Positions 36,072 to 38,603 of a stretch of DNA of 64,000 bases are shown piece by piece. The position numbers were made by a program, and so were the translations under genes. Where the stretch lies: the sequence record PV691511.1; one strand, 5' to 3'. How positions within the stretch are numbered: position 1 is the stretch's first letter; every line of letters starts with the position of its first letter. This DNA comes from Escherichia phage WPEC2. The notes under the pieces are model-generated. The model was not told where the DNA came from. It saw only the letters and a program-made list of their open reading frames with translations, and did no database searches.

Positions 36072-36674
36072 TTATGGACATTCATACCATTCTTTTTTAC
36101 CACCGAAGGCCATCACCACATCACAAATATCCAGACCCGCTTTACCTACACCATATGCTTTCAGCTTCCATTCCCCATCTTCACGAACCAAGGAGGCCAC
36201 GTGGCAGATTGTGTTGCCAGCTACTTCAGGAGCCAGGAAGTCAAAATCCAGAATTTCCACATTACGTTCGGAGTCAAAGATTTTAAGCATACCTTCAGAA
36301 GCATGACCAAAACGTTTCAGACCTGTATCATCATCAATGGTCAGAACAAAGGCAATCTCTTGTGCATCAGGAGAGATTTTAGCCAGAGTAATATCAATCT
36401 GCTCCATGCTGCCAGTCCCATCACGAACATCGTCGCCAGCGAAAGTAGAACGTTCAGGATCAAACTTGTTAGCATAGCAAACCAGGTGACGTGCAGACAG
36501 CATTTCAGGATTGCCAGCAGCATTATGACGACAAACCAGTGCACTTACATCCAGATCCAGTTTAGAATTAGATTTCCAAGAGAATTCCAGGCGCAGTTCT
36601 TTCAGAGCCGGAGCAACTTTCTTCAGGGAAATTTTTTCGCTAGAGCCTTTTTTCAGGGAAATTTTATCAGTCAT
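36072..36674 (-). CDS. terD: TerD-family stress-response protein
   Basis: 200 aa; ISLKKGSSEKISLKK..., KLDLDVSAL, GDDVRDGTGSMEQIDI, GEWKLKAYGVGKAGL align with the TerD/TerE signature. Confidence 0.75.
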   Translation of the reverse strand: MTDKISLKKGSSEKISLKKVAPALKELRLEFSWKSNSKLDLDVSALVCRHNAAGNPEMLSARHLVCYANKFDPERSTFAGDDVRDGTGSMEQIDITLAKISPDAQEIAFVLTIDDDTGLKRFGHASEGMLKIFDSERNVEILDFDFLAPEVAGNTICHVASLVREDGEWKLKAYGVGKAGLDICDVVMAFGGKKEWYECP

Positions 36675-36689
36675 CTTTTGTCTCCTCTA

Positions 36690-36959
36690 TTATTTAAGTG
36701 TAATACCAGTTACAGTCAATTCTACTTCCAAAAGCTTAGATGTGTTTTGGATTGTTACTAATTGTGCATGATGGTTTAGTTCTACAGCAGAATAATCATT
36801 TTCCCCATCATCTACTTTTAAATAAACAATGACTTCACTAAGGTCTAAACCATTTTCGTCAAATGCATTTTCATAGACGAAAGTATCTCCTACATCCAAA
36901 TCTTTAATGGTAAGGCATCGTTTATTTACTTTTTGCTCATCAATTTCGAAGTTTAACAC
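36690..36959 (-). CDS. hypothetical protein
   Basis: 89-aa ORF; co-oriented. Confidence 0.5.
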   Translation of the reverse strand: MLNFEIDEQKVNKRCLTIKDLDVGDTFVYENAFDENGLDLSEVIVYLKVDDGENDYSAVELNHHAQLVTIQNTSKLLEVELTVTGITLK

Positions 36960-37188
36960 TTCTTCCTCCTAATGTTATCTCCGGTTTGTCTATACGAAGA
37001 ATTATAGCATTTTCATTTTCTTTGTCAACCCATTCTTCATAATCGGGCCATACATGAATCTCTACTCTACTTACAATATCTTCCATCCGCACAGTCCCAA
37101 TGAAGTATTCTTTGAGACTGCGCATAATGAAAGCTTCTCTCTCGCGCCAATAATTTTCTACGACTTGAGAGGCAAGCTCGTCGATCAT
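36940..37188 (-). CDS. hypothetical protein
   Basis: 82-aa ORF; ATG overlaps stop (ATGA) of the upstream vWA remnant frame. Confidence 0.5.
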   Translation of the reverse strand: MIDELASQVVENYWREREAFIMRSLKEYFIGTVRMEDIVSRVEIHVWPDYEEWVDKENENAIILRIDKPEITLGGRSVKLRN

Positions 37189-37604
37189 TTTTTAGCACCT
37201 ACTTTAACAACCCACTCTCCGAACTCTTCAGATAAGAGTTTGTCATAAAGCTCTGAATCTGTCAAGTCTAAATCTTTAATGCCAATAAAACCAACATTAT
37301 CGTAAGCATTTGCCAGTTCTTTCAGGAAGCCAAACTTCTCATTACCAACGCCAACCATGAACCAATAAATAGGTTTATTCTTATTCTCTTCAATAAGACG
37401 ACGAACAGCACTAGGATCACCATTCTCACCGTCTGTCTGGAAGAATACAACACCAGGAGTAACGTCAGCACTTGGTTCAGATACAGCTACAACCTTTTCA
37501 CGCTCTACAGATACTGTTTCAGTTTTACCAAGCAGAGAAATTACTACAGAACAAGCCCTTATCGACGAGGGTCGTAAAATCTTAGAAAAGTATTTAGGGG
37601 AGAT
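37185..37604 (-). pseudogene. start-less vWA-domain C-terminal remnant (TerY-like), probable truncated gene
   Basis: 139-codon open frame between stops at 37605-37607 and 37185-37187 with no in-frame ATG/GTG/TTG in first about 85 codons; encodes ...VVFFQTDGENGD...YWFMVGVGNEKFGFLKELAN...; MIDAS DxSxS N-terminal half absent in all frames upstream. Confidence 0.5.
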
Positions 37605-37623
37605 TCATAAAACCCCTGGCTAT

Positions 37624-37863
37624 TTGGGTTGGAGAATTGTTGAAGCTGTAGATTTCCTTCCTCGTAACAGTAAAAACGTCGAAATGCGATCTCTTTTCTT
37701 ATTAGTAAAGGTGGATGGGGATACGCCTTTTAAAGATGCCGCAGAACATATTGAAAAAGTTGAAGAGAAAGCTTATGCAGAATTTGCCGATCTTGTTTTA
37801 GAACAAGAGATTGAAGGAAAGGTGAATATTTTTATTTTCTTAGATTTTGAGGAGGATAAGTGA
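37624..37863 (+). CDS. questionable small ORF at island boundary
   Basis: Track ORF begins with TTG; frame open upstream without start codon; weak SD; may be non-coding leader of phosphatase operon. Confidence 0.25.
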   Translation: MGWRIVEAVDFLPRNSKNVEMRSLFLLVKVDGDTPFKDAAEHIEKVEEKAYAEFADLVLEQEIEGKVNIFIFLDFEEDK

Positions 37864-38603
37864 TCATACACAGAGAAATTACTGTTAAAAGCGATCAAGA
37901 TCTTTTTATAATTGGAGATCTACACGGTTGTTATAATTTGTATGAAAAAGGAAAGGCAAAGTTAGGTATCCGAGATACAGATGTGGTTGTATCTCTAGGA
38001 GATCTTACTGACCGTGGAAAGCAAAACTTTCGTTGTGTTTTAGAATTTACTCGTAAACACAATCGCTACGCTATTCGTGGCAATCATGAAGACATGATGA
38101 TTAAAGGTATGCTGGAAGGAGATCGTAGCTACTACGAGTGTTGGTATCAAAATGGAGGATATACGGTCTTTGAAGAATGTGGTGAAGAAGGAGCTACAGC
38201 CTTAGCAATGATGACAGAAGATTTACCTGTTGTTCTCATTGTTAACTACAGAGGCATGAAACTTGCGTTTATTCATGGTGGGTATCCATCTTCTTTGGAA
38301 TATCTCCCTGTAACAGATATTCCAGAATACATTTCGAAGATGACAAAAACACAGGAAAACCGTTTTGCTGAAGCACTTATGTGGGACAGAGATATGGTAG
38401 ACTGTGCTAAAGAGGGAATGAAACTTCCTGTTGTGATGGGTGTGGATTATGTGTTTCATGGACACTCTTATGTAAAAACACCTATTATCAATGCGAATCG
38501 TGTTTATATGGATACTGGATCTGTGTTCAATAATAATTTAACATTTGCTTATTTCGATATGGACGGTGGTCTTCAATTTTATTCAACTCTTGAGGAGGAT
38601 TAA
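37860..38603 (+). CDS. Ser/Thr protein phosphatase, PPP family (lambda phosphatase-like metallophosphoesterase)
   Basis: 247 aa; GDLHG, GDLTDRG, GNHE metallophosphatase motifs in order; GTG start 4 nt after GAGGAGG SD. Confidence 0.85.
   Translation: MIIHREITVKSDQDLFIIGDLHGCYNLYEKGKAKLGIRDTDVVVSLGDLTDRGKQNFRCVLEFTRKHNRYAIRGNHEDMMIKGMLEGDRSYYECWYQNGGYTVFEECGEEGATALAMMTEDLPVVLIVNYRGMKLAFIHGGYPSSLEYLPVTDIPEYISKMTKTQENRFAEALMWDRDMVDCAKEGMKLPVVMGVDYVFHGHSYVKTPIINANRVYMDTGSVFNNNLTFAYFDMDGGLQFYSTLEED

Follow-up and report, generated by a model that had tools for sequence, protein, structure and literature searches.

Two distant Phapecoctavirus genome pieces, most likely joined during assembly, bring a terD gene, a severed TerF-like vWA gene and a PPP-family phosphatase gene together in a record of Escherichia phage WPEC2

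Ter components, the roles proposed for them and their organization into operons in jumbo phages and in 'related smaller tailed phages' have been described by Iyer et al. (2021, PMC7824862), and individual phage clusters are on record, such as that of the Klebsiella phage phiKp34, which comprises terC, terF-vWA, terD and telA (bioRxiv 10.1101/2021.03.02.433402), and that of ZCKP1, with four tellurite-resistance-related genes (PMC6141743). In a second association, the TerY-P triad, a TerY vWA protein is combined with a Ser/Thr kinase and a phosphatase of the PP2C family (Anantharaman et al. 2012, as summarised in PMC10542128). The present work concerns a locus (36072-38603) within 64,000 nucleotides of Escherichia phage WPEC2 (sequence record PV691511.1), the whole of which is called the window hereafter, where a terD gene, the remnant of a vWA gene and, on the opposite strand, a protein phosphatase gene lie close to each other. 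An initial annotation had taken these genes for the pieces of a Ter-like stress module, captured from the host and later decayed. The comparison with related phages leads to a different reading, namely that two unrelated pieces of Phapecoctavirus genome are joined bluntly between positions 37536 and 37537, most likely (with a probability of about 0.8) as concatenated assembly contigs and not through a biological event.

Megablast of positions 35000-40000 against phage records placed the window in Phapecoctavirus, the group of phAPEC8-like E. coli myoviruses of ~150 kb within the subfamily Stephanstirmvirinae, most related records being 95-99% identical to this region and the sibling records WPEC1, WPEC4 and WPEC6 100% identical over the stretches compared. 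When the whole window was aligned with phAPEC8 by local blastn, positions 1-37536 were collinear with phAPEC8 75795 to 115552, and positions 37537-64000 with phAPEC8 31918 to 1549 in descending order. The blunt junction (37536-37537) thus joins phAPEC8 nucleotides 115552 and 31918, which in that phage stand far apart and in opposite relative orientation. WPEC6 is 100% identical to the window over 22.5 kb on either side of the join, at two separate places of its own sequence (91320-113856 and 35058-57521). The distance between the two halves, taken in nine records, ranged over 81-88 kb in the six non-WPEC Phapecoctavirus genomes (phAPEC8, 83.6 kb; ABPW7, 81.0 kb; Mt1B1_P17, 81.4 kb; vB_EcoM_REC, 88.1 kb; iGC_PHA_EC001, 85.4 kb; tuntematon, 84.1 kb) and was 48.0, 52.1 and 78.8 kb in WPEC1, WPEC4 and WPEC6, respectively.

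Read directly, the join consists of TTACCAAGCAGA followed immediately by GAAATTACTACAG. To its left, intact relatives go on as CGATTAAAG inside a 264-aa vWA gene (L001 8186-8980 in WPEC1; gp063 in phAPEC8), while to its right the sequence starts at codon 2 of a gp182 homologue. None of the 68 records matched by a 400-nt query centred on the join spans it; the two halves stand at different places in these records, and every match is confined to exactly one half. No microhomology was found at the join, and no repeat is common to both breakpoint contexts, or shared among the recurrent breakpoint loci considered below. The exact junction string was not found in viral, metagenome or genome contig collections; a control string from the intact vWA gene was also unmatched in the viral contigs, which makes the absence of the junction there weak evidence and leaves the BLAST of phage records to carry the weight. 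An exact protein look-up gave no match on record for the 57-aa truncated vWA product (37185-37358), and the 79-aa product with a TTG start was matched exactly on one Logan contig, there in the normal gp181-gp182-phosphatase context. The possibility that the join represents the genome ends of the phage or a concatemer junction was ruled out, both breakpoints being internal to continuous sequence in 68/68 relatives and the join being inverted with respect to phAPEC8. Judged from these comparisons, it is the junction that makes TerD, vWA fragment and phosphatase adjacent, and they are so in this sequence alone; the intact terD-vWA-phosphatase arrangement which the initial annotation had proposed to look for in related phages was seen in none of the 68 records, terD and the phosphatase gene being 81-88 kb apart in the six non-WPEC genomes.

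The two genes cut by the join tell the same story from either side. On the minus strand, the vWA gene (37185-37536) is reduced to its C-terminal 117 codons plus one nucleotide of the phAPEC8 gp063 homologue. By tblastn, this fragment is 100% identical to residues 149-265 only of the intact WPEC6 protein, and no trace was found in the window of the N-terminal 147 aa, to which the MIDAS motif D-I-S-G-S belongs. The PHROG 5359 match of the fragment covers positions 134-229 only, and a 57-aa ORF with an ATG start within it (37185-37358, minus strand) matches positions 139-194 of 200 of the Pfam vWA-TerF-like profile (6.4e-9). Since profile positions are kept only from about 84/139 to 194, a complete PF10138 domain with its MIDAS DxSxS is absent from the window and present in the intact relative (8.9e-38, 130.9 bits). 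The initial annotation had described a decayed, TerY-like remnant. A C-terminal vWA fragment is indeed there, but its type is that of the TerF C-terminus (PF10138), the generic VWA model scoring 18.9 bits, under its cutoff of 23.8, and the PADLOC models giving no TerY-P match. The supposed decay did not bear scrutiny either: the homologues are full-length, 209/209 phage records matching over at least 80% of the protein, and the gene is intact in the 100%-identical WPEC1, WPEC4 and WPEC6 as well as in phAPEC8. As the truncation is a single cut and what is left matches the intact gene at 100% identity, the alignments indicate that the gene is not decayed but severed at a single nucleotide, the join responsible having cut another gene, on its right, as well.

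That other gene is the gp182 homologue (37537-37863, plus strand), 109 aa when intact, which from codon 2 matches positions 2-109 of 109 of PHROG 15398 (1.4e-66), its counterpart being phAPEC8 31592-31921 and its ATG and ribosome-binding site (Shine-Dalgarno) having been lost at the junction. In phAPEC8 and WPEC6, gp182 is intact. What separates the phosphatase gene from the vWA fragment is therefore a start-less gp182 copy and not intergenic sequence. A PPP phosphatase had been placed 250 nt beyond the vWA remnant on the opposite strand; the phosphatase gene (37860-38603, plus strand) is found as described, whereas the vWA homology ends at 37536, and the distance of 250 nt arose because the open frame runs on to 37604 through what is antisense gp182 sequence.

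The attribution of the join to assembly, which rests on the comparison of deposited sequences, is favoured because the near-identical WPEC records show mutually inconsistent layouts and reused breakpoints, as expected of concatenated contigs. In WPEC1, phAPEC8 40648 plus a C is joined to 31918, the right-hand nucleotide being the same as in the window and the partner different; this WPEC1 join was considered as a natural allele and ruled out, since WPEC1 itself is the one record out of 119 that spans it. A join of 118701/2 to 61731 (inverted), which clips the start of TelA, is common to WPEC1 and WPEC4, and in WPEC6 61735 is joined to 40642. Furthermore, about 9 kb of WPEC6 (PV763039, ~143.1-152 kb; L013 9276-18217) is a patchwork of 75-155-bp fragments, repeated and in both orientations, which derive from five source loci (phAPEC8 355-507, 7272-7428, 40569-40722, 61654-61814 and 145185-145299), and the right end of WPEC1 (L001 11995-14537) is a similar patchwork. 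Both have the appearance of small nodes of an assembly graph strung together; as a secondary possibility, the recurrent breakpoints of the siblings could reflect a real structural heterogeneity of the phage DNA, beyond assembly noise. The window itself contains a second non-collinear join at ~63361-63367 (phAPEC8 7348 to 2186, ~5.2 kb skipped), the ends of which coincide with recurrent WPEC6 fragment ends and which could stem either from a further concatenation of contigs or from a genuine deletion. Several observations, nevertheless, weigh against an assembly origin of the join at 37536-37537. The layout agrees with one clean inversion of phAPEC8 31919-115552, after which the phage could in principle be viable; 115552 and 31918 are both missing from the recurrent fragment ends of the WPEC6 patchwork; the contigs would have ended in the middle of unique genes, which is atypical of repeat-induced assembly breaks; and the right breakpoint lies, for no evident reason, immediately behind a start codon.

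The first two of these observations also speak for an isolate-specific inversion of ~84 kb with respect to phAPEC8, which we consider unlikely. Such an inversion, in a virulent myovirus, would have inactivated both the TerF-like vWA gene and gp182, yielding a natural vWA-null mutant in which TerD was kept and expressed under a strong promoter of its own, the internal promoter-like site at 37001-37028. Both cut genes are accessory, of unknown necessity, and shortly downstream of the break there is a perfect sigma-70 consensus oriented towards terD; if true, the mutant would be a ready-made tool to ask what the phage Ter cluster does. However, the join occurs in no other record or contig, the 100%-identical WPEC1, WPEC4 and WPEC6 retain an intact vWA gene and WPEC6 an intact gp182, the siblings combine inconsistent layouts with concatenated fragments, nucleotide 31918 being reused with another partner in WPEC1, and, with both gene sets reading outward from the join, their upstream transcription context would be lost. 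Far less probable still is the model of the initial annotation, according to which TerD, a TerY-like vWA protein and a Ser/Thr phosphatase form, or once formed, a single host-captured and decaying Ter-type stress or defence module. The link between TerD and vWA is genuine in this and in related phages, and in bacteria vWA proteins are indeed combined with phosphatases and kinases in TerY-P triads (PMC10542128). Against this model stand the distance of 81-88 kb between phosphatase and terD in the six non-WPEC relatives and the absence of such an enzyme within ±10 kb of terD in two distant ones, the PPP/NinI type of the phosphatase, which is not PP2C, the lack of a kinase among the 17 ORFs scanned (35166-42271), the TerF type of the vWA protein without a PADLOC TerY-P match, the single cut leaving a remnant 100% identical to the intact gene, and the merely 31-36% identity of TerD to plasmid TerD proteins. 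The concatenation of assembly contigs is thus the preferred reading, and the two sides of the join are treated separately in what follows.

To the left of the join, the intact minus-strand cluster that extends upstream of the break in relatives was profiled with Pfam and NCBIfam in WPEC6 and phAPEC8. Its order is HAD, PRTase, Macro, ..., TerC, ..., SprT-like, TelA, ..., TerF-like vWA, two small genes, TerD and endolysin. Besides the vWA protein (gp063, 8.9e-38), matches were obtained for TelA (gp057, 3.2e-33), the SprT-like protein (4.2e-9), TerC (gp052, 4e-40; TerC/Alx subfamily, 4.9e-95) and a ComF-like PRTase (PRTase_3, 2.3e-41), together with a Macro-domain protein slightly under the Pfam cutoff (2.3e-4) and a HAD hydrolase under it (4.3e-4). 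Four small or unknown genes between TelA and the vWA gene gave no match or a sub-threshold DUF7167, and neither three unknown genes between the SprT-like protein and TerC nor a small unknown gene (gp051) gave any. TerC, TelA, TerD and the TerF-like vWA are therefore co-located with nucleoside-metabolite enzymes in WPEC6 and phAPEC8, and partly so in two contigs of distant relatives, L008 and L009. Most of the cluster lies outside the window, which retains no more of it than TerD, the pair of small genes and the final 117 codons of the vWA gene. In L008, where TerD is 53% identical, TerC, TelA, an intact TerF-like vWA and TerD occur together; in L009 (TerD 34% identical) TerC, TelA, a likewise intact TerF-like vWA and TerD do so, with two TerD and two TelA genes. 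No metallophosphatase was found within ±10 kb of terD in either contig.

The terD-vWA adjacency consequently recurs in independent related genomes, and the proposal of a Ter-like module in a phage retains its core, in that Ter genes belong to this lineage and TerD and vWA are linked in it, also in L008 and L009; the phosphatase is no part of it. A PADLOC search gave no match for TerD, vWA, TelA or TerC, and no relevant one for the phosphatase. Phage Ter clusters are already known, including in this genus, ZCKP1 being a Phapecoctavirus with a TerD 99.5% identical to that of the window. Following published Ter analyses, in the infected cell TerC, a TerC/Alx-family membrane protein, would function at the inner membrane with TelA and the TerF-like vWA protein, TerD would act as a soluble ligand- or Ca2+/metal-binding component, and the PRTase, HAD and Macro enzymes may give rise to a nucleoside-like signal, the outcome being that superinfecting phages or colicins would be excluded or envelope stress tolerated.

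TerD itself is encoded by an intact gene (36072-36674, minus strand; 200 aa; homologue of phAPEC8 gp066). Its initial assignment was borne out by the profile search (Pfam TerD, PF02342, 1.5e-28; 100 bits against a cutoff of 25.3), which covered nearly the whole profile (positions 3-177 of 187, that is 175 positions), and the matches in PDB are Klebsiella TerD (2KXT, 1.1e-15) and 3IBZ (2e-14). Homologues were found in 146 phage records, 131 of them at 80-100% identity (Phapecoctavirus and rV5-like phages, Stephanstirmvirinae-type), with 99.5% across Phapecoctavirus and about 81% in rV5-like phages, whereas the best plasmid matches reach 31% (Klebsiella and E. coli ter operons) and 36.5% (Photobacterium). 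Given 80-100% identity among phages against 31-36.5% to plasmid TerD, the sequence evidence indicates an old gene of the phage lineage, and the suggested capture from the host, at least as a recent event, finds no backing.

The phAPEC8-like clade is further characterized by its TerD loop, which reads GDDVR--DGTGSMEQ where the canonical form in the alignment, 2KXT included, is GDNxTGDxEGDDEQ; it is two residues shorter and has T, S and M at three positions that are acidic in the canonical form, and the DLD motif is kept. The canonical acidic Ca2+-binding loop reportedly reads GDN(R/L)TGEGDGDDE in the structure paper on Klebsiella TerD. Since the phage clade is without several acidic residues of the canonical loop, Ca2+ binding by the phage protein should not be assumed and may not hold. 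At its N-terminus (MSEKISLKK...), the vWA protein in its intact, stand-alone form (L006 22186-22980) is similar to the N-terminus of TerD (window 36480-36641), with 37.5% identity over 56 aa (E 0.028), possibly as a relic of a fusion of TerD and vWA like that of TerF.

Two small genes separate terD from the vWA fragment, as had been stated initially: a conserved gene of 89 aa (36690-36959, minus strand; PHROG 11278, 4.5e-44) and another of 82 aa (36940-37188, minus strand; PHROG 22387, 2.5e-56), both without a Pfam domain. Within the latter, upstream of the 89-aa gene and terD and facing them, lies a putative promoter (37001-37028, minus strand) with a perfect sigma-70 consensus (TTGACA-16-TATAAT, TG before the -10; 12/12 match), which is the only such site in the 64 kb, 0.03 being expected, and which does not figure in the phAPEC8 annotation. 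Downstream of terD and in the same direction of transcription stands a SleB-type cell-wall hydrolase gene (35452-35973, minus strand; Pfam Hydrolase_2, 1.8e-17), annotated as endolysin in relatives.

To the right of the join, the phosphatase gene (37860-38603, plus strand; 247 aa; phAPEC8 gp183) encodes a calcineurin-like metallophosphoesterase of the PPP family, predicted to be a NinI/lambda-phosphatase-like Ser/Thr phosphatase (Metallophos 2.7e-13, 51 bits against a cutoff of 21.5; PHROG 246, NinI-like Ser/Thr phosphatase, 1.8e-75), in the translation of which the motifs GDLHG, GDLTDRG and RGNHE can be read; it gave no match to PP2C. The normal order of gp181, gp182, phosphatase, a 102-aa gene and a DprA-like gene is found in 64 related records, as well as in phAPEC8, WPEC6 and one Logan contig. 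In the window, the DprA-like protein that normally accompanies the phosphatase is encoded at 38895-39500 (plus strand; PHROG 768, 2.3e-62), and 1.8 kb downstream of the phosphatase there is a 104-aa Acb2/Tad1-hairpin protein (40425-40739, plus strand; Pfam PF24729, 2e-16), also present in the Logan contig L010, which is likely to be a counter-defence gene of the anti-CBASS or anti-Thoeris sponge type. A 313-aa protein with DUF7277 and DUF7275 (41330-42271, plus strand; 7.5e-76) is conserved in the same cluster. On gene order, the phosphatase is a member of this separate accessory cluster (gp182, phosphatase, small gene, DprA-like, ..., Acb2/Tad1-like) and not of the Ter module.

Elsewhere in the window, the DNA polymerase I gene (24877-28209, minus strand) encodes 1110 aa, compared with 865 aa in phAPEC8, the difference being due to an in-frame insertion of ~730 bp at ~25731-26460; this insert may be an intein, as hinted at by weak, sub-threshold matches to splicing (E 0.009) and LAGLIDADG (E 0.2) domains. 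As regards the records compared, some that are 80-99.9% identical to these coliphages are named as phages of Acinetobacter (vB_AbaM_ABPW7), Campylobacter (A145 and four others) or Pseudomonas, host labels which look doubtful. Nothing was found in the literature on the WPEC phages, nor on TerD in Phapecoctavirus by name.

The biological weight of the locus is small, since Ter clusters of virulent phages, members of this genus among them, are known already and the link suggested with the phosphatase fails. Its practical meaning is that probably non-biological joins in the window and in the sibling WPEC records produce false gene neighbourhoods and false pseudogenes, so that inferences on synteny drawn from WPEC records need to be checked against references of the phAPEC8 type. 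The lineage-specific change in the Ca2+ loop of TerD is a small, testable detail.

Set beside the known systems, the intact relatives of the window share with the phage Ter clusters (PMC7824862; phiKp34; ZCKP1) the same set of domains, comprising TerD, TerF-like vWA, TelA, TerC, PRTase_3 and HAD, a set which also matches the Ter system of Anantharaman, Iyer and Aravind, whereas TerD and the vWA gene's C-terminal 44% are all that the window contains of it, the rest being beyond the junction. With the plasmid terZABCDEF and telA operons (IncHI2 R478, Klebsiella ter plasmids) there is likeness in the TerD fold family (2KXT, 1.1e-15), in the vWA of the TerF C-terminus and, in the relatives, in TelA and TerC. 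The phage system differs from them in that its TerD is 31% identical, with a shorter (by two residues) and less acidic Ca-binding loop, that a single TerD paralogue takes the place of TerZ, TerD, TerE and TerF, that the vWA protein stands alone with 264 aa and is not fused to a full TerD domain, and that neither TerA nor TerB was seen in the phage stretch examined. What recalls the TerY-P triad is that a protein phosphatase is encoded within 350 nt of the vWA fragment; in the window, however, the vWA is of the TerF and not the TerY type, the phosphatase is PPP and not PP2C, no Ser/Thr kinase occurs among the 17 ORFs, PADLOC gives no match, and the adjacency is unique to this sequence, made by the junction. 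Finally, the phosphatase shares with lambda NinI and with E. coli PrpA/PrpB the motifs GDxHG, GDxxDRG and GNHE, and PrpA/PrpB are its best NCBIfam models, but with 94 bits it stays far under their equivalog cutoffs (326 bits); it is a paralogue of the phage lineage.

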